From: Kofleriaceae bacterium
GTDB taxonomy: Bacteria > Myxococcota_A > Polyangia > Haliangiales > Haliangiaceae
Direction: 5' to 3'
DNA: 64,000 nt
Assembly (NCBI GenBank): GCA_046597055.1
Contig: JBKJLC010000079.1
Span: 1-64,000, forward strand
Shown here: positions 51,568 through 60,478 of the stretch, piece by piece
How the letters are laid out: each line of letters starts with the position of its first letter
Position numbering within the stretch: the stretch's first letter is position 1
Notes under the pieces: generated by a model
The model's input: only the letters and a program-made list of their open reading frames with translations
Told to the model about the DNA's origin: nothing
The model's database searches: none
Translations under genes and position numbers: made by a program

Positions 51568-51754
51568 TCGCCGCGGTCGCGCGACCGGTCGAACACCGCG
51601 CGAGCATCGCCGGGGTGAGCGCGCCGCGCGGGCCCGGCTGCACACGGCGACCGCGAGAGCGGTGGTCGCCGACAGCGTCGTCATCTCGTCGTCGCACAGC
51701 GCGCCCTCGGGACACTGCCAGTCGCCGATGCACGCGATGGTGATGCCGCTCGTG

Positions 51755-52219
51755 ATCGCCTGGCGCTATCCCAATGCGCGCGCGATCTTCATCACCGCCG
51801 ACGCTGGCGGCAGCAACAGCTATCGCTCGCACGTGTGGAAGGAGCAGCTCCAGCAGCTCCAGCAGCTCGCAGACAAGCTCGGCCTCGCGGTCCACGTCAG
51901 CCACTTCCCTCCCGGCACCAGCAAGTGGAACAAGATCGAGCACCGCCTGTTCTCGTTCATCTCGATCAACTGGCGCGGTCGACCCCTGCGGACCTACGAG
52001 ACCGCCATCAACCTTATCGGCAACACGACCAACCGCAGCGGCCTCGTCGTCCGTGCACGCCTCGATCGTCGCCGTTATCCGATCGGCAGGAAGGTCGCCG
52101 CCAAGGACCGCCGCGCGTGGAAAATCGAGCGAGCTGACTTCCATGGCGACTGGAACTACGTCATCCAACCGCGCGACGAGATGCGGTGATCGACCGAGTT
52201 ACCCATTCGAGGGCCCTAA
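51755..52219 (+). pseudogene. 5'-truncated ISAzo13-family transposase with putative element end
   Basis: YP.A..I.ITADAGGSN, HFPPGTSKWNKIEHRLFSFISINWRGRPL, FHGDWNY; N-terminal part absent; ...GGGCCCTAA after the stop may be the terminal IR. Confidence 0.85.
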
Positions 52220-52247: not shown

Positions 52248-52571
52248 TCACACGATCGTTGACCGAGCAGCGGTGACGCAACCAACTGCGATGACCCTGT
52301 ATCCGTCGAGCAACTCGATCAGGCTGCCCTGGCCGAGCCACTCCGTGGGTACCGGATCTTCCGAGATCAATCGAAGAGTGGCCATGCCCCGGTTCGTCGC
52401 TTGGTCGAACGCGATGCTCGTACATTCGACATCTCGGGCGCGCTCCAGGTGCTCGCGAAGATACCGTTGCCACCGAACCGTTGGCCGCATTCCGAGATAG
52501 GGCTCAGAGCGGAGGCCTCCCAGTTCGCACGGAATCCAGAGGAACTCGACCTCGACTACTATGGGGCTCAC
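52248..52571 (-). CDS. Putative Rhs immunity protein resembling EF-Tu domain III
   Basis: GTG start overlaps the Rhs TGA; 107 aa; GG..SEPY.GMRP and G..IEL.DG.RVIAVG.V. Confidence 0.7.
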   Translation of the reverse strand: MSPIVVEVEFLWIPCELGGLRSEPYLGMRPTVRWQRYLREHLERARDVECTSIAFDQATNRGMATLRLISEDPVPTEWLGQGSLIELLDGYRVIAVGCVTAARSTIV

Positions 52572-55500
52572 TTCGGCACCGGGGTGATCAGCGGAAGGTC
52601 GCTGCACTCGACGCAAAATCCGGGCCCGGTACCGTCAATGTTCGGGTGCCGATAGCTGCGCTCATACACAGACCTTGGCACACGGCCCTCCACGACGTCG
52701 TCGAGGCCGGGCATGTTCTTCCGGAACCACTCAGCGCCCTGACGTGATTCGGAGAACCACTTGCTTTCCATAGATCGTCCCGCGGGATCGGGTCGGAAGC
52801 CGTACCTGGCGATGTCGTCGTCCTCGGCTCTCGACACGGCGCGCCAGCCCGTCACCGCGTCATCGGCGCCCCCGGCCGCCGGTGTGGGCAGAGACGCTCC
52901 TGGCGCGCCAGGCGGCGGACGCTGTCCCCCGGCTCCATTGGGTAGGCGAAGGCCTGCATCATCGATCCATCGACTGCCGGAGCCGGGCGCAGCAAGCCTG
53001 CCGATCCGGCCTCCGATGTGTCCTCCGATCACTTTGCCTACTCCGACACCGAGCCTCGCAACGAGGCCGCCCGTGCCGAAGCTCAGCACGAGCTCGGCGA
53101 TCAGCGGCGGCGGCTCGAGCCCGCGCTCGGGCAAAAGGACGTTGCCCATGTGCTGCCCGTTGCGGTCAAACAGGGCGAAGCGGGGACTCCCCGAGGTGCC
53201 CTCTCTGCGCTCGTAGCCGACCAGATCGTAGGTGGTCACGCGCGGGGAGAGTGGACTCCCGGTCTCGAACTCGCGTGCCACGCCGAGGGCCGTGATGCTG
53301 CCCCACCCGCCGCCCCGCCCGCTAGTGACGAACTCCCGCTCCCATGCGCTCGTTCCGAAGTCGCTGATGCCGGCAAGCCACTCGGCCGCCGCCGGGCTCG
53401 GAATACCGATTTGGATGCCGACAGCCTGGCTGCCCAGACCCATCGGGTCACGGAAGGCAAGGGGCGCACTGCCGACGAAGGCGAAGAGGCTGGGGCCGCC
53501 GGCGAGGCCGATGGGGTCGGGGGAGAGGAAGCGGCCCAGGGCGGGGCGGTAGGTGCGAGCGCGCATGTCGACCAGGCCGAGCGCCAGGTCGTGGGGCAGG
53601 CCGTGGTAGCCGAAGGGGCTCGGCATCGCGGACGCGGGCACCTCGTTCATCTGGCCGTCGCGCAGCGTGACGTCGCCGTAGGCGCTGTAGCGCAGATGAC
53701 GGACGGGGAGGCCCTCGCGATCGGTCAGGAGGTAGACCGAGCCTTGTCGATCTTGGTGGTGATAGAGGCGGGCGCCGAGCTTGTCGAGGGTGACCACCGG
53801 CTGGTCGAGTCCCTCGGCGGCGATGACGGTCTCCAGGAAGCCGGTGGGGCGCCCGATGAAGACGAGCTGGACGCCGTCCCAGCCGTAGCGGGTCACGGCG
53901 CCGGTGGTGGGGTTGGTTTCGGTCACGACGCGGCCGAGAGCGTCGCGCTGGTAGCGGCGGCCCTCGCCGCCGGCGGCCGTCGGTTTGACCGAGGCGAGAT
54001 AGCCGAGCGCGTCGTAGCTGTACGCGGCGGTGTCGTCGGCGACCAGCGCGCCGCGCGCGTCTCGGCCGGTCGCGGTGGCGCCGATCGCGGTGACCGCGTC
54101 GCGCGCATCGCGGGTGTAGCTCGTGGCCTGCGCCGCCACGGTGCGGGACGTCCAGTTGTTGCGGCCGTCGAACGCCCACTGGGTGCGACCGGCGTCGGTC
54201 GCGGCCAGGGCGGTTGCGGTGGCGGCGGCCGACCCGTCGAACGCGCCGAGCTGGAACGTCGCGGTGACGCCGGTCTGCTCGGCGGCGAGCCGCCCCAGCG
54301 GGTCGATGCCGTAGACCGTGACCGCCGGCTCGGCGGTGATGCCGCGCTGGTCCCGCAGGCGGCGCGGGACGCCATCGAGCGGCAGCTCCCACTCGAGTGA
54401 GGCGAGGAGCGCGCCGGTCTGGGTGTGGCGATCGGTCACGCCGGTGAGCCGCGAGAGCGCGTCGTAGTCGTAACCGGTGACCACGCCGTTCGCGAGCCGG
54501 CGATTCCGCGGGCCGCCCAGGCCGCCGTACTCCCACATCGCCGTGGGGACACTCTCTGCGCCGATCGTGAGCTGCTGCTGCCGGCCGAGCGCGTCGAACC
54601 TGCGCGTGACGGTGGCCTCGCCGCCGTAGATCGAGCGCACCCGCTGGCCCAGGCCGTCGAAGGCGTGGCGGCGCGCGTTGGTGGTGCCGAGGATGTCGTC
54701 GGACTCCTCGGCGAGATTGCCCAGCGAGTCCCACCCGAACGTGCTGGTGACGGTGGCGCCGGCGGCGCCGCCGTCCTGGCGGGTCGCGCGCCGCATGCGG
54801 CCGAGCGTGTCGTACCCGTAGCTGAGCACCACGCGCGCGCTGGCCTCGGGCGGCACCAGCTCGGCGCGCTCGAGCTCGCCGCCGATGGCCCACGTGAACG
54901 CAGTGCGCACACCGCGCGGATCCAGCCGGGTCTCGGGCAGGTCGGTCACGCCGAGGTACGCGGTCGCGGTGATCGCGCCGACCGGGTCGACCTCGCGCTC
55001 GAGGCGACCCAATGCGTCGTACCCGTAGCCCCAGCTCGACGGCAGGCTGTCGGCGCCGGCGAGGCTGGTGCGGGCCACCGGCCGGTCATCGCCGTCGTAG
55101 CCGACCTTGACCTGCTCCTGCATGCCAGCGTCGGGCAGCGTCGTGAAGGTCGTCTCGCTTCGATCGAACGCGTCATAGGTCATCCTCGTGACGACCCCGC
55201 TCGCATCCGTCCGGCCCCCGACCCGGAACGGGTCGTCATAGGCGAGGGCCTCGAGCACGCGGAGCTCGGTGCCCCGCTCGACCGCACGCTTGCCGACCGC
55301 GCCGGTCGCGGTGAGGTTGGTGACCTCGTCGATCACGCCCCCGATGCCCGGCCGCCGGGTACGCACGGTGCGCCCGCCGTTGTCGTAGCGGGTCGTGAGG
55401 GTGGTGCCGTCTGGCAGCCGCACCTCGCTCGGACGCCCGGCGCCGTCGTAGCTCGCGCGGGTCGTCTGGCCCCGGTCGTCGGTCACGCTGACCGTGCGCG

Positions 55501-58500
55501 CCACATCGTCGTGGTGATAGGTCGTGACCGCGAAGCCGTCGCCCTGGGGCACGCCGCTGGGGTTCAGGTGCCAGCGCTTCTCGGTCACGAGCCGCGCCCG
55601 GCGGTCGTACTCGAGCTCGACCGCCGCCACCAGGCCCACGGTCCCGACCACGGGCGGACCCGCCGGCGGGCTCCCATGGTTGTAGTGCGCTTGCCACACG
55701 ACGTTGCTCAGCTCGTCGTAGCCGGTGCGGATCGAGCCGCCGTCCGGGTGGCGCTCGAAGATCGGTCGCCCGAAGCCGTCGTACTGCCAGGTCGTCTCCA
55801 GCCCACGGGCGTCGATGGCCGCGAGGAGCTGACCGTTTGGGTGATAGCGGTAGGTCGCGATCGTCCCGGCCGCATGGCTGCCGGACACGCGCGCCGGGCA
55901 GGCGTCATCCCACTCGGCCGCGGACGGCCCCAGGGCCCCCGCCATGATCGACGTCACCCGGCCCTCGCCGTCGTGGCCATAGCGGGTGCGGATTCCCTCG
56001 GCGCTCACCGTCTCGAGGATTCGCCCCGCCGGGCCCTGCTCCTGACACCGGGTCGCCGGCAGCAGACTCCCGTCGAGCGCGCGCCGCGTCGCGGTGACGG
56101 TCGCGCCGGTGGCGTCGTAGGTGATGTCCACCGCCTGGCGTGCGCCGGTGATCGTCTCGACCTGCGCGTCGTCGTCGTACCCGTAGGTCACTGCGCGGGT
56201 GAGCCCGTCAGCCTCCCAGCCGCGCCCGTGCAGCAGCGGCCCTTCCCAGTCGAAGGTCTGGACCAGGCCGAGCGGGGACACGGACCGGGTCGGGCGACCT
56301 GCGGCGTCGCTCATCACTTCGCTCCGCGCGGGCACAGCGCCCGCGACATCGACGATGGTCGAGCGCACCGTGCCGTTGGTGCGGTCGTAGGCGATCTGGG
56401 TCACCGCACCATCGGGGCCGGTCACCGTCGCAGGCGCGCTGCGGTCGGGGCCGGGGCCGCCGACCAGGCCGAGCCGGGTGACCAGGCCGTCGGCCGCGAT
56501 CACCGCGCGCAAATTGCCCGCGCTGTCGTATTCGCGGCGCTCGAGGATGCGCGACGTATCGCGCGGATCCCACACGACCGACATGCGGGCCGGCCAGTCG
56601 GTCCATCCGAGCTGGCGGCGGATCGGGGCCCCGCCGTCGGCGGGCAGGTCGAGCACGCGCGCCAGATTGCCTCGGGGATCGTACGTCAGGCACTGGCGTG
56701 CCCCGGTGGGCGTCAGAACGCCGACGACGCGGCCGTCTGGATCGTAGTTCATCCACGAGGCCGCCCCGGTGTCGTGGTTCCGTGTGTGCACCAGCCGCCC
56801 GGCCGCATCGGCGTAGTAGGTCCAGAACGCGCCGTGCAGATCGTGCAGCACGGTCGCCTGGGTCGGCCGCGGGCCGCTCCCCCAGTCGATCCCGACGGGC
56901 GTCGACGGATCGCACGGCACCTCATGCACCGTGTCGAGCCGATCGGCGTCGCTGTAGAACAGGTCCGCGGGCGGCATCGCGGGCGGGTAGGTCAGATCGG
57001 GCCCGGTCTCGTCGCTGAAGTGGAAGACGTAGAGCGGCTCGGTCGCGGCCAGCCCCTCGTCGCCAGGTCGTGCCGCGGGCGCGCTGAACAAGGGCACGCT
57101 CGCGTAGAGCGGCTGGGCCCGCAGCTCGGCCAGCTTGGCGGCGGAGCTGCTCGCAGCCACCGTTCGCTGGTAGCGGCCATTGCCGTGGCTGACGAGCACG
57201 AGCGGCGTCCGCACCGGCGCCAGCGCGCTCGGGCGGAAGTGGCTGCTGGTGATCGACGCCTGCCCCGTGCGCGCGAACGCCGCCGCCGCGCCGTCCGGCG
57301 CGAGACTGGCGAGGGGCGCCGTCCACAGATCGCCCTTGTCGCAGGCGTCTTCCGGCGTGATCGACAGCTCGTGCTCGCCGGTGCGCTCGACGTGGAACGG
57401 CCGGGTGCAGGCGCCCGCGGCCATGACCGCGGCGCTGGTCGGGCGCCCCGGGTAGACCCGGATGGAGACGCCGTCGCCCCATACCGTCAGCCCGCCGACC
57501 TGGCCGAGGCGCACCGCCGCCGCCTTGTCGCCGGCGACGGCGACTGCACCGCCCGGATCGAAGGTCAGCACGACCGTGCCCTCGGGCAGCGCCAGCTCGA
57601 GCCGGTGCGGGGCCTTGTCGAGCGGGGAGCGCGACGCAACTCGCGCCGCGATCGTGCCGGTGCTGCCGCCCGTATCGATGCGCACGAAGGTCGGCGCCAG
57701 CCGGGTCGTTGCCTTGAAGGTTGCCTTGACGAACGACCAGCCGCCGAGCGGCGTCTCGTCCGGCCCCACCGCCGGGAAGTCGAACATCACATCGCCCCAC
57801 GGCACGATCAGGTGGCGCGGCGGCCTCACCGGTTCGGCCGTGCACGCGTACGGACAGATCGTCGGGGGGCGGAAGTCCGCGGGCGCCGCGACCATGCCGG
57901 CCGCCCACGTCGCCGGCGCCGAGTTCGCCGCCGTCAGATCCACCCGGCTCAACGCCGCCGTCCGCGTCCCGTAGCGCTGAGCGGTGACGGTGTCGAAGTC
58001 GGGCGATGCGAGGTCGGTACCGTAGGTGTTCTCGAGGTACAGCGCCCCGTTGCCGTCGGTGACCCGCACCAGGTTGAAGTTCAGGTCCGCGAGATAGCCA
58101 TACTTGGGCCCCACGAACGGCCCGCTCGCGTGGGCGTCGTCAACGCACGCCGCCGTGCACGACGTCTCGCACGTGCCCGCCAGGTCGAGCCCGGTGCAGT
58201 AGGTCGCGCAGTCATTGACGTGACAGCCCGCCGCACAGGCCGCGCCGCAGTCCGCCCGGCAGCCGGAATTGCATCCGCCCCTGCAACCTCTGTCGCAATC
58301 GTCATAGCAAGCGTTGCGTGCCTGCCTGAGGCACCCGTAGTTCTCGCTCCACGTGCTCGCGGTGCCCGCGCACTCGATGAGGTCGTTGTATTCCTGGCTG
58401 CCAGGTGCCGGCGTCAGCCTCGCAAGGTCCGCGCACCCGCCAGGTGCGGGACAGTCGCTCACGTGGCCGAAGCCGAGGAACGTGTTTTTACACTCGTCCT

Positions 58501-60478
58501 CGCAGCTCGCGCCGGCGGTACACCCGCCGCCATTGCAGTCGTCTCCGTAGGCGCAGCAGTTGGCGATATCCGTGTGGCAGATCTGATCCTTGGCGGCCTC
58601 GGTATGCCTCCAGGTACAGCCCTCCCAGGGCGGCCACCTCCACCCCAGACAGCCGAACGTCTCCATGACCGCCGTGACCGAGACGATGAATGCATCCAAC
58701 GTGTCCTCGACGAGGTCGTGCGGTCCATGCCAGCGCGAGCATTCCGCTGGGACCTCGACCGAGGTGGTCGTATTGCCACCCTGGCCTGCTCCGACCGGGA
58801 TGTTGACGACGCCCGCCGCGCATTGGAAGACCGCTTCGCACTGACCGCCCGTCTCCGCATCGCACGCGTCCGCACAGGCCGCGCACCCGGCCGCGGCGGT
58901 GTCCTGGTACAGGTCCTCGCAGTACGACCGGAGCGAGTCGAGTTTTTCGGGTGTGGTGCACTCGTCGAAGCACGAGTCCCCACATGCTCTGCCGCAGCCG
59001 GTCGAACACTCGTCTTCGCACGCGTCGGTGCACGTCTCGTTGCACGCCGGACACGCCGCCAGGCACGCCCCGGTGGCCGCACGCACCGGCGCATCACACG
59101 CGCCACCGGCGTCGCACGACCGCGACGAGACCGCGCAGGCGTTCGCGCACGTGCGCTCGAGCTGCAGCTCGGGGATCCAGGGCCCCACGGTGCGCCCGGC
59201 CTGGACGTCGTACTCGTAGCGCTCGCTCCGTCCGTCGGCGCGGCGCGCGAGTTCGAGCCCGCCGTTGGCCCCGTACTCGTAGCTCGCGGACATCCCCGAC
59301 CGCGCCTCCGCAACGCGCTTCAGCCGATCGCTCCCATCGTAGGTGTACTCGATGCGGCGCCCCACGCTGTCGGTCACCGCGGCGAGGCGCCAGTCTTGCT
59401 GCGCCCCCGGCTCCCATCCGAACGTCAGGCCGATCCCGTTGGCATCGGTCCACGCCGCCAGGAGGCCCCGGCCGTCGAAGCGACGGATCTCGCCGCCCCG
59501 GTCGCGCAGCTCCCACGTGATCGCGTGCGCGCCCTCGGTCCCCACCAGCGAGAGGTCCGCGACGTCGCTCTGATAGGTGACGCGCTGCGCCTGCCGCGAG
59601 ACCTCCCGGAAGCGAAACGTCGCGCCGGTCCCCGACGACAGCAGCATGACCGGCCCGCAGATCGGATCCTGGTTGATCTCATCCGGGACCGGCAATTCGC
59701 CTTGCGGCCCCGTGGGGGTGCTCGTCGTCGGCGCCGAGAACGACACTGGGGCCGGAGCCGCGACCAACCGCTGGTTGTAGGAGACGTCCCAACCGGGCCC
59801 CAGCGGTCCCCGGTACTCGAGGCGGCTGCGGTAGATGCGGCGATGCGCGAAGCTCACGCCGAAGCCGGGCAGCGCCAGGTCGACATGCTCGATCACCAGC
59901 TCGCCGGTCACCGGATCGATCGGATCCGTGATCCCGTCCGCGACCTGCGCCGTCGGCGTGCTGCCATTCGGCGCCACGAACCGAGGCCCACCCTGGGTCT
60001 GGGGGAGTGGCACCGGTCCCCCTCGATTGCTCCACCACGAGGCCAGCAGCCGCTCGGTCGTCACCCGCCCGGTGGCGGCGCGGTCGGCCAGGTCCGTGTT
60101 GGCCGCCCAGAACGCCGCCGCCGTCGCTGGCGCCCTGCTCGCGTGGAACGACTCGACCGGAGGTGCCTCCAACGGAGGAGGCCGCACCTTCCGTTCCACT
60201 GCTCCGAACAGCGTCGCGCCGCGGTCGGCGCCGAGACTGCGACCGATCACCGGCTCGATCCGGCTTCCCCCGCCGGTGTCATCAGGGGCCCATGTGGAGA
60301 TGGTCTCGTCGCACTCCAGGCACGCATGCAGCGGCGCCGACGGATCGCAGTCGGGTCGGCGCCGGCACACCTCCGCGTTCGCGGTTGTAACCAGCGACGA
60401 GCCCGCCACGCCCAGCGCGGCCGCGATTGCCAGCGCGCCGGCGACCGCGACCAAGACACCACTTCGATGACGCCTCAT
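52568..60478 (-). CDS. Secreted Rhs/YD-repeat polymorphic toxin (signal peptide, DUF6531-like region, Cys-rich insertion, Rhs core, C-terminal toxin tip)
   Basis: N-terminal signal peptide; DPIDPVTGE...R.YRS...GPLG.GW; many YD..GR repeats; YHQDRQGS, GRFLSPDPIG, PLAFRDPMGL. Confidence 0.93.
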   Translation of the reverse strand: MRRHRSGVLVAVAGALAIAAALGVAGSSLVTTANAEVCRRRPDCDPSAPLHACLECDETISTWAPDDTGGGSRIEPVIGRSLGADRGATLFGAVERKVRPPPLEAPPVESFHASRAPATAAAFWAANTDLADRAATGRVTTERLLASWWSNRGGPVPLPQTQGGPRFVAPNGSTPTAQVADGITDPIDPVTGELVIEHVDLALPGFGVSFAHRRIYRSRLEYRGPLGPGWDVSYNQRLVAAPAPVSFSAPTTSTPTGPQGELPVPDEINQDPICGPVMLLSSGTGATFRFREVSRQAQRVTYQSDVADLSLVGTEGAHAITWELRDRGGEIRRFDGRGLLAAWTDANGIGLTFGWEPGAQQDWRLAAVTDSVGRRIEYTYDGSDRLKRVAEARSGMSASYEYGANGGLELARRADGRSERYEYDVQAGRTVGPWIPELQLERTCANACAVSSRSCDAGGACDAPVRAATGACLAACPACNETCTDACEDECSTGCGRACGDSCFDECTTPEKLDSLRSYCEDLYQDTAAAGCAACADACDAETGGQCEAVFQCAAGVVNIPVGAGQGGNTTTSVEVPAECSRWHGPHDLVEDTLDAFIVSVTAVMETFGCLGWRWPPWEGCTWRHTEAAKDQICHTDIANCCAYGDDCNGGGCTAGASCEDECKNTFLGFGHVSDCPAPGGCADLARLTPAPGSQEYNDLIECAGTASTWSENYGCLRQARNACYDDCDRGCRGGCNSGCRADCGAACAAGCHVNDCATYCTGLDLAGTCETSCTAACVDDAHASGPFVGPKYGYLADLNFNLVRVTDGNGALYLENTYGTDLASPDFDTVTAQRYGTRTAALSRVDLTAANSAPATWAAGMVAAPADFRPPTICPYACTAEPVRPPRHLIVPWGDVMFDFPAVGPDETPLGGWSFVKATFKATTRLAPTFVRIDTGGSTGTIAARVASRSPLDKAPHRLELALPEGTVVLTFDPGGAVAVAGDKAAAVRLGQVGGLTVWGDGVSIRVYPGRPTSAAVMAAGACTRPFHVERTGEHELSITPEDACDKGDLWTAPLASLAPDGAAAAFARTGQASITSSHFRPSALAPVRTPLVLVSHGNGRYQRTVAASSSAAKLAELRAQPLYASVPLFSAPAARPGDEGLAATEPLYVFHFSDETGPDLTYPPAMPPADLFYSDADRLDTVHEVPCDPSTPVGIDWGSGPRPTQATVLHDLHGAFWTYYADAAGRLVHTRNHDTGAASWMNYDPDGRVVGVLTPTGARQCLTYDPRGNLARVLDLPADGGAPIRRQLGWTDWPARMSVVWDPRDTSRILERREYDSAGNLRAVIAADGLVTRLGLVGGPGPDRSAPATVTGPDGAVTQIAYDRTNGTVRSTIVDVAGAVPARSEVMSDAAGRPTRSVSPLGLVQTFDWEGPLLHGRGWEADGLTRAVTYGYDDDAQVETITGARQAVDITYDATGATVTATRRALDGSLLPATRCQEQGPAGRILETVSAEGIRTRYGHDGEGRVTSIMAGALGPSAAEWDDACPARVSGSHAAGTIATYRYHPNGQLLAAIDARGLETTWQYDGFGRPIFERHPDGGSIRTGYDELSNVVWQAHYNHGSPPAGPPVVGTVGLVAAVELEYDRRARLVTEKRWHLNPSGVPQGDGFAVTTYHHDDVARTVSVTDDRGQTTRASYDGAGRPSEVRLPDGTTLTTRYDNGGRTVRTRRPGIGGVIDEVTNLTATGAVGKRAVERGTELRVLEALAYDDPFRVGGRTDASGVVTRMTYDAFDRSETTFTTLPDAGMQEQVKVGYDGDDRPVARTSLAGADSLPSSWGYGYDALGRLEREVDPVGAITATAYLGVTDLPETRLDPRGVRTAFTWAIGGELERAELVPPEASARVVLSYGYDTLGRMRRATRQDGGAAGATVTSTFGWDSLGNLAEESDDILGTTNARRHAFDGLGQRVRSIYGGEATVTRRFDALGRQQQLTIGAESVPTAMWEYGGLGGPRNRRLANGVVTGYDYDALSRLTGVTDRHTQTGALLASLEWELPLDGVPRRLRDQRGITAEPAVTVYGIDPLGRLAAEQTGVTATFQLGAFDGSAAATATALAATDAGRTQWAFDGRNNWTSRTVAAQATSYTRDARDAVTAIGATATGRDARGALVADDTAAYSYDALGYLASVKPTAAGGEGRRYQRDALGRVVTETNPTTGAVTRYGWDGVQLVFIGRPTGFLETVIAAEGLDQPVVTLDKLGARLYHHQDRQGSVYLLTDREGLPVRHLRYSAYGDVTLRDGQMNEVPASAMPSPFGYHGLPHDLALGLVDMRARTYRPALGRFLSPDPIGLAGGPSLFAFVGSAPLAFRDPMGLGSQAVGIQIGIPSPAAAEWLAGISDFGTSAWEREFVTSGRGGGWGSITALGVAREFETGSPLSPRVTTYDLVGYERREGTSGSPRFALFDRNGQHMGNVLLPERGLEPPPLIAELVLSFGTGGLVARLGVGVGKVIGGHIGGRIGRLAAPGSGSRWIDDAGLRLPNGAGGQRPPPGAPGASLPTPAAGGADDAVTGWRAVSRAEDDDIARYGFRPDPAGRSMESKWFSESRQGAEWFRKNMPGLDDVVEGRVPRSVYERSYRHPNIDGTGPGFCVECSDLPLITPVPK

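Follow-up and report, generated by a model that had tools for sequence, protein, structure and literature searches.

A small protein very probably descended from EF-Tu domain III is paired with an ART-fold Rhs toxin tip in a Kofleriaceae bacterium

Several polymorphic toxins exploit the translation factor EF-Tu; Tse6, for one, binds its domain I. As described in the papers cited, CdiA-NC101 binds domain 2 (PMC5737660), Rhs2 of Serratia binds at the GDP site and uses EF-Tu as a cofactor (bioRxiv 10.1101/2025.10.28.685041), and TreTu of Salmonella Typhimurium, a tip of ADP-ribosyltransferase (ART) fold in which R6 and E12 are both essential, docks on helix D of domain I and modifies Asp21 (PMC9825190). 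The immunity protein TriTu, a five-stranded sheet with two helices, forms a lid over TreTu (PMC9825190). TreThr (RhsF) modifies tRNA and has an all-helical immunity protein, RhsFi (PMC13617354, PMC13324451), while Tne5 carries an ART-fold tip that acts as an NADase (PMC13285283). In these accounts no EF-Tu-derived immunity protein is described for Rhs2, CdiA-NC101 or Tse6. Here we analyse a stretch of 64,000 nucleotides from a Kofleriaceae bacterium (contig JBKJLC010000079.1; hereafter the window, to which all coordinates refer unless a locus is named) that encodes, on the minus strand, an Rhs protein with a 100-amino-acid (aa) toxin tip (52571..52870) and, directly after it, a putative cognate immunity protein of 107 aa (52248..52571) that is a stand-alone homolog of EF-Tu domain III.

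In layout the pair resembles known ART Rhs systems; it lacks features of the TreTu family and its immunity protein has a different fold. The likeness to TreTu and TriTu comprises a minimal ART fold in an Rhs tip some 100 aa long, an Arg on strand 1 with a Glu six residues on, a small downstream immunity gene and a link to EF-Tu. The differences are that TreTu has no sequence match to the window tip; that TreTu has His31 on strand 2 whereas the window tip has K-W-F-S; that the last ~12 residues of TreTu, its EF-Tu-anchoring helix, lie outside the alignment and have no evident counterpart; that TreTu is delivered by PAAR and type VI secretion (T6SS) whereas the protein described here has a signal-peptide-like start; and that TriTu is a flat sheet with two helices, the window protein a barrel with one short helix. 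With RhsP2, TreThr, Tre23, TreX and Tne5 the pair shares an ART-fold tip, an unorthodox triad and a downstream immunity gene, but the reported targets of those toxins are RNA, FtsZ or NAD itself.

Descent of the small protein

A first issue is the origin of the 107-aa protein, which the initial annotation had matched by eye to EF-Tu domain III: the match held at the level of fold and family profile, but not for the single sequence. The AlphaFold2 model (pLDDT 88.7) contains the six-stranded barrel of translational GTPase domain III, with one short helix. Foldseek, a check that the annotation had proposed, returned the EF-Tu domain III barrel: all matches listed are EF-Tu, the best at E 2.9e-4 (TMq 0.62, with a range of 0.58-0.69). 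An independent structural aligner (VIA) gave GTPBP1 domain III (Z 11.3, root-mean-square deviation (rmsd) 2.5, 84 aligned) and EF-Tu residues 300-394 (Z 10.4, rmsd 2.6, 87 aligned); the domain III of GTPBP1, aEF1A, Hbs1 and EF-Tu all fell inside one Z unit, and the 19 best rows were translational-GTPase-family domains throughout. No immunity-protein chain occurred among the 50 best structural matches, a result that leaves the existence of one possible.

The window sequence by itself carries no significant signal. Compared with the EF-Tu domain III of its own genome it gave a BLASTP E of 0.58; on a hidden Markov model (HMM) built from 23 EF-Tu domains only it scored 0.0 bits, and 20 of 200 shuffles scored as high. 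A search of PDB sequences returned nothing useful (top match HtrA2 at E 0.7), and a profile of the close family yielded only WD-repeat artefacts there, which we rejected. As the family was widened the HHalign probability for EF-Tu domain III went from 3.4% with the 24 closest relatives to 93.7% (E 1.9e-7) with a 96-member family and 98.0% (E 1.4e-13) with a wide set of 16 rows. It is thus structure and family profiles, not a single-sequence match, that make descent from EF-Tu significant. When the 16-row profile, holding no EF-Tu row, was run against the PDB, EF-Tu filled 59 of the 60 best rows listed (best E 4.6e-8) and eEF1A, SelB and CysN appeared in none of those 60, which points to bacterial EF-Tu specifically as the source.

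Relatives of the small protein form a graded series, from copies that still match tuf by BLAST to the window's copy, recognisable by profile and fold only. At the near end stands L079, which by tblastn reaches annotated tuf genes at 31-38% identity and which, together with L009b and L040, matches NCBIfam EF-Tu models across EF-Tu residues 303-395. On the EF-Tu-only HMM the scores of tip-adjacent relatives were 34.7, 35.6 (L040), 38.4, 15.8 and 12.2 bits, with 0 of 200 shuffles as high. The 27-bit cut-off of PF03143 (GTP_EFTU_D3) was passed by one stand-alone relative only, L009b (32.6 bits); 8 of the 96 family members match that model at E<=1 (best 7.7e-4), and the window protein gives no match. 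Several clades hold the EF-Tu-specific motifs EGGR..P...GYRP and EG.R.VG at 24-30% identity.

The family is large and of uniform size. Of 28 candidates 23 were close homologs of the small open reading frame (ORF), and at E<=0.001 a search without a length filter gave 127 cluster representatives, of which almost all measure 90-125 aa. In the ESM Atlas both tip and small protein fall in unnamed clusters, and those of the small protein carry PF03143 on 10-13% of their members. The small-protein profile also matches 179 of 251 genomes, mostly in frames of ~400 aa; the 22 such loci that were examined are tuf. With EF-Tu domain III the small proteins share the barrel, a recognisable EGGR loop, GxRP and the final EG.R.V.G hairpin, the retained positions being the GG loop, the GxR and the last hairpin. 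They differ from it in standing alone – the 107-aa chain has neither G domain nor domain II – in their 11-30% identity, in a changed Thr382 position, in an insertion of their own at about residues 35-47, and, in the window's clade, in about 10 extra residues. The window's genome retains two intact tuf genes. Taken together these data make it very probable that the small protein is a descendant of bacterial EF-Tu domain III.

Two minor observations concern this lineage. The window protein deviates at well conserved positions, with L20 in place of His (52514-52512, -) and C98 in place of Arg (52280-52278, -), and its tip has D17 in place of an otherwise well conserved Ala (52822-52820, -); drift and a change of specificity are both possible. 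Elsewhere, the EF-Tu paralog encoded by L076 (460-1773, +) is divergent, its domain III motif being altered, and is of a kind that could seed such captures.

Association of tip and small gene

The initial annotation had placed the 107-aa ORF on the Rhs stop codon, and there it lies: the Rhs TGA (52570-52568) is overlapped by the GTG start (52571-52569), forming the junction GTGA, and the peptides quoted in that annotation are present in the translations of tip and ORF. It had also proposed co-occurrence as a check, which we approached from either side. Starting from the small gene in 19 metagenome loci, a tip was found directly upstream in 13, none in three, and three lay too near a contig end – 13 of 16 testable loci, or 11 of 14 once two near-identical pairs are merged. 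A further pair was found at L027; L028 was a false positive. Starting from the tip alone, nine loci were recovered. They lie in genomes of the same phylum, a Deltaproteobacteria bin, Ralstonia and Nonomuraea, and for most of them identity to the window tip is ~27-36%. In eight of the nine a leave-one-out profile detected a domain-III-like gene directly downstream (E 1e-26 to 7e-3), a count in which two matches are weak (L035, L040) and related loci support each other. A second, distant pair is present in L009. As a control we took the 11 Rhs cores of the window's own genome, where a six-frame scan found tip and small gene at the window locus only, with a domain-III-like match at 0 of the 10 other Rhs loci. 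Genomes from the class of G201 gave matches in one of 20, a tip search of genomes returned mostly repeats (five of six matches already known), and neither tip nor small gene was found in viral contigs.

Both genes have the marks of coding sequence. Third-codon-position changes prevail in the small gene against seven relatives (an 86-codon block) and in the tip against six (an 83-codon block); against L009 alone the changes by codon position number 9/2/17 in the small gene, and in the tip 3/3/12. On these alignments we take the 107-aa ORF to be under purifying selection and both genes to be real. The arrangement is that of a polymorphic toxin: a variable C-terminal tip, reused across carriers, with a small conserved gene directly 3′. 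The two families occur side by side in many genomes that are not related to one another, and tip and small protein very probably constitute a new toxin-immunity family, with bacterial EF-Tu as the ancestor of the immunity protein.

That the small protein is the immunity protein for the tip is, judged from gene order and conservation, highly likely. The contrary proposition, that it serves as an accessory chaperone or is a fragment of tuf that has decayed and travels with the cassette, draws on six orphan copies of the small gene (L020, L021, L026, L052, L056, L080). It sits badly with the purifying selection, with the fixed position of the gene on or just after the toxin stop and with the 127 representatives, nearly all of about 100 aa; moreover, two of the orphans lie amid immunity-type genes, a setting usual for orphan immunity genes (L020 is next to Barstar, and L021 next to DUF4304 and a PT-HINT fragment), and the window Rhs has no other candidate immunity gene before the insertion sequence (IS) remnant downstream. 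We regard this proposition as very improbable.

Some further features of these cassettes deserve mention. L009 holds two orphan cassettes of different clades on one contig (3324-4141 and 6735-7696, +), each preceded by a near-identical stretch, which is a sign of cassette swapping. Truncated or interrupted copies, often near IS or integrase remnants, occur at L022 (1759-2288), L023 (620-1149), L041, L079 and L020 (3336-3698), and in these the small gene is mostly intact. Directly after the domain-III-like gene of L032 lies a stand-alone 112-aa ORF (910-1245, +) that is weakly tip-like (E 6e-4) and has no Pfam or NCBIfam match.

The tip and its possible target

The annotation's suggestion of an ART-like tip is borne out: the model (pLDDT 91.1) has the split beta-sheet of the ART fold, and ART-fold rows fill the lists of both Foldseek and a wide structural aligner. 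Foldseek gave no match at E<=0.001; its rows are tRNA 2′-phosphotransferases (the best, at E 0.012), ParT, exotoxin A, diphtheria toxin, PARPs, TreTu and Tne2. The aligner placed diphtheria toxin first (Z 8.5, rmsd 3.7, 94 aligned), followed by TreTu (Z 7.1, rmsd 2.5, 84/113 aligned), RhsP2 (Z 6.9, rmsd 3.0, 89 aligned), Tne2 (Z 5.9) and TreX (Z 5.8) – values that are middling singly, in a list filled by one superfamily. Conserved residues of the tip, in tip numbering, are R10, S13, E16, G24, K37, F39 and D79. R10 on strand 1 and E16 have the spacing of R6 and E12 in TreTu, a correspondence of spacing and not of residue-level superposition; the strand at 36-40 reads S-K-W-F-S. The canonical R-S-E and H-Y-E triads are both absent, in that the strand-1 Arg is conserved and no conserved Glu lies near the C-terminal strand.

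Tip profiles found no match in PDB sequences or Pfam, nor did 13 individual tips in Pfam, and a phmmer match to SelB (E 0.3) was rejected as a helix-only chance match. ESM Atlas feature scores of 0.86 for PF24691 (the TreTu family) and 0.87 for Tox-ART-HYD1 (PF15633) are leads only; the latter family, going by its name, presumably has His at the first triad position, unlike Arg10 of the tip. Among the best 7999 candidates scored, the tip lies at the C-terminus of at least 45 longer proteins; Rhs/YD domains are found in most of these, PF14449 in one and PF04830 in one, and Chitinivorax, Acidovorax and a Deltaproteobacteria bin are among the named sources. In Nonomuraea gerenzanensis it is fused to a short non-Rhs protein bearing a signal peptide (L049, 1916-2791, +), and the family thus uses more than one carrier. 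The modelled fold suggests that the tip probably ADP-ribosylates something in rival cells.

What that something might be hinges on why a domain of EF-Tu should have been recruited. The reading that we tentatively prefer, and to which we assign – jointly with the proposition that such toxins form a widespread, undescribed family whose decoys have diverged from tuf to differing degrees – a probability of roughly 0.45, is that of a target-derived decoy: the tip would attack EF-Tu through domain III, and the immunity protein would be a domesticated copy in which the acceptor-face Thr has been replaced. Under this scheme the exported Rhs protein would self-cleave and bring the 100-aa ART-fold enzyme into a competitor bacterium, where the tip would bind NAD+ via Arg10 and Glu16, dock on EF-Tu domain III and ADP-ribosylate EF-Tu or its tRNA, halting translation. 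The producer would co-translate a free-standing domain III that an ancestral member of the family had captured from tuf, and this copy would occupy the tip where EF-Tu would bind and so block the toxin. Since its capture it would have changed in step with the tips, becoming in each clade a tighter binder specific for its own tip, with the most remodelling in the clade of the window. With less certainty we infer that the ancestral tip bound domain III, whether this was its substrate, its docking site for the tRNA that EF-Tu carries or its cofactor, because a housekeeping fragment is selectable as an antidote only if it already binds the toxin. The window's copy would be at best a remodelled mimic, since it is the most diverged from EF-Tu.

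The acceptor-face Thr, which we take to be T382 in E. coli numbering (the position was matched by distance from the C-terminus), is retained by none of 19 immunity-like proteins, and 76 of the 96 members of the window's family have Val at this position. In EF-Tu, T382 is described as buried against switch II in the closed form, and its phosphorylation keeps EF-Tu open (PMC5851678). Loss of the Thr fits the expectation for a decoy that cannot be modified.

A number of observations weigh against a decoy. The change from Thr to Val is equally explained by loss of the contact with domain I. The window protein shares 17 of 94 aligned residues with the EF-Tu domain III of its own genome, most of them glycines; the conserved residues W12, R33, Q35 and E86 are specific to the family and differ from EF-Tu; and the greatest distance from EF-Tu is that of the window's clade in a FastTree of weak support, whose 24 open inner branches out of 39 and long-branch joins support no claim on single versus repeated capture. 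Nor is the pairing without exception: L049 has no profile-detectable partner, its downstream ORF aligning by eye only, and among the matches listed from an immunity-first search of 251 genomes three of the four new stand-alone genes (L052, L056, L080) have no tip upstream, the other (L079) following a truncated tip. The annotation had appealed to toxins that engage EF-Tu, and TreTu and CdiA-NC101 do so, but at domain I and domain 2 and, in those accounts, not at domain III (PMC9825190, PMC5737660). TreTu docks on helix D and is covered by the unrelated sheet-plus-helices lid of TriTu, and the activities of other ART-fold Rhs tips extend to tRNA, rRNA, further RNAs and FtsZ as substrates, or to plain hydrolysis of NAD.

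Several of these points could also be read as signs of an EF-Tu-derived scaffold that now serves as a plain active-site lid, with EF-Tu no longer touched and the tip hitting an unrelated target or hydrolysing NAD. ART tips are usually neutralised by a lid or plug (TriTu, RhsFi, Tni5), and the low identity to EF-Tu, the family-specific residues, the leading Foldseek row of the tip (a tRNA 2′-phosphotransferase), the tie between RhsP2 and TreTu in the structural alignment and the want of a conserved canonical catalytic Glu are all in keeping with it. Yet a lid leaves the recruitment of EF-Tu domain III unexplained, and several clades still hold the EF-Tu-specific motifs; we think this explanation unlikely, if far from negligible. 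Recruitment is accounted for as well as by a decoy if EF-Tu is cofactor and not victim, the tip needing domain III to fold, enter or activate and the small protein blocking the dock. For this Rhs2 of Serratia offers a precedent, in that EF-Tu binding is reported to be needed for intoxication of bacteria and not for DNase activity (bioRxiv 10.1101/2025.10.28.685041); CdiA-NC101 is a second toxin that makes use of EF-Tu in this manner. A cofactor of entry, however, needs no blocking inside the producer, and the precedents are nucleases that bind EF-Tu on different domains and whose immunity proteins are unrelated, which leaves this account doubtful and distinctly improbable.

The origins of immunity proteins are largely open, most having no recognisable ancestor; here an ancestor, bacterial EF-Tu domain III, can be identified. 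We found no description of an EF-Tu-derived immunity protein in the full-text literature, as covered by titles and the beginnings of abstracts, with supplements and subscription papers outside that scope. EF-Tu has no mention in the first 300,000 characters of a 2012 survey (PMC3482391) and is named in the references only of PMC11996579 and PMC12136450, supplements again lying outside the scope. Should the decoy reading be true, it would represent a new protection strategy for polymorphic toxins; the immunity gene by itself would identify the target, and a vulnerable surface of EF-Tu, itself new, would be indicated. Without it, a new ART-fold toxin family is defined and the stand-alone 'EF-Tu C-terminal domain' clusters of protein databases are explained.

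The Rhs carrier and its surroundings

Rhs proteins self-cleave at a DPxGL motif and deliver their tips. The carrier in the window is an Rhs/YD-repeat polymorphic toxin of 2636 aa (52568..60478, -) with matches to RHS_repeat (E 2e-38), YD_repeat_2x, Rhs_assc_core and DUF6531 in Pfam and NCBIfam; it has both the YD/RHS repeat shell and an Rhs-associated core (53435..53689, -), recognised by NCBIfam profile and motif, that ends in DPxGL (53435-53449). Between core and tip lies the pre-toxin part of the C-terminal extension, a Gly/Ala/Pro-rich linker of ~190 aa (52871..53434, -). Neither the last 296 residues of the protein, linker included, nor the 107-aa ORF has a match in Pfam or NCBIfam. The fraction of G and C is 0.61-0.67 across tip and small gene versus 0.72-0.76 in the Rhs shell.

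At the other end the protein begins with a basic and then hydrophobic stretch that resembles a Sec signal peptide by eye (residues 1-35; 60374..60478, -), followed by DUF6531 (residues 185-240; 59759..59926, -; Pfam E 6.6e-15). After DUF6531 the shell is interrupted by a cysteine-rich insert, also judged by eye, of ~350 aa and approximate limits (residues ~440-790; 58110..59160, -). Together with the signal-peptide-like start, this insert suggests export through Sec and the formation of disulfide bonds, which would set the protein apart from T6SS Rhs proteins. Pfam found no PAAR domain in the Rhs protein, and VipB was not found in the window's genome (94% complete).

The toxin cassette is closed by a 3′ fragment of an ISAzo13 transposase (51662-52189, +; Pfam E 1.7e-51), which converges on the small gene and lies ~60 bases beyond it. 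Ten more Rhs proteins with unrelated tips are encoded elsewhere in the genome, on contigs C10, C50, C83, C133, C142, C204, C209, C227, C243 and C262, and at least one of these tips is HNH-like by eye.

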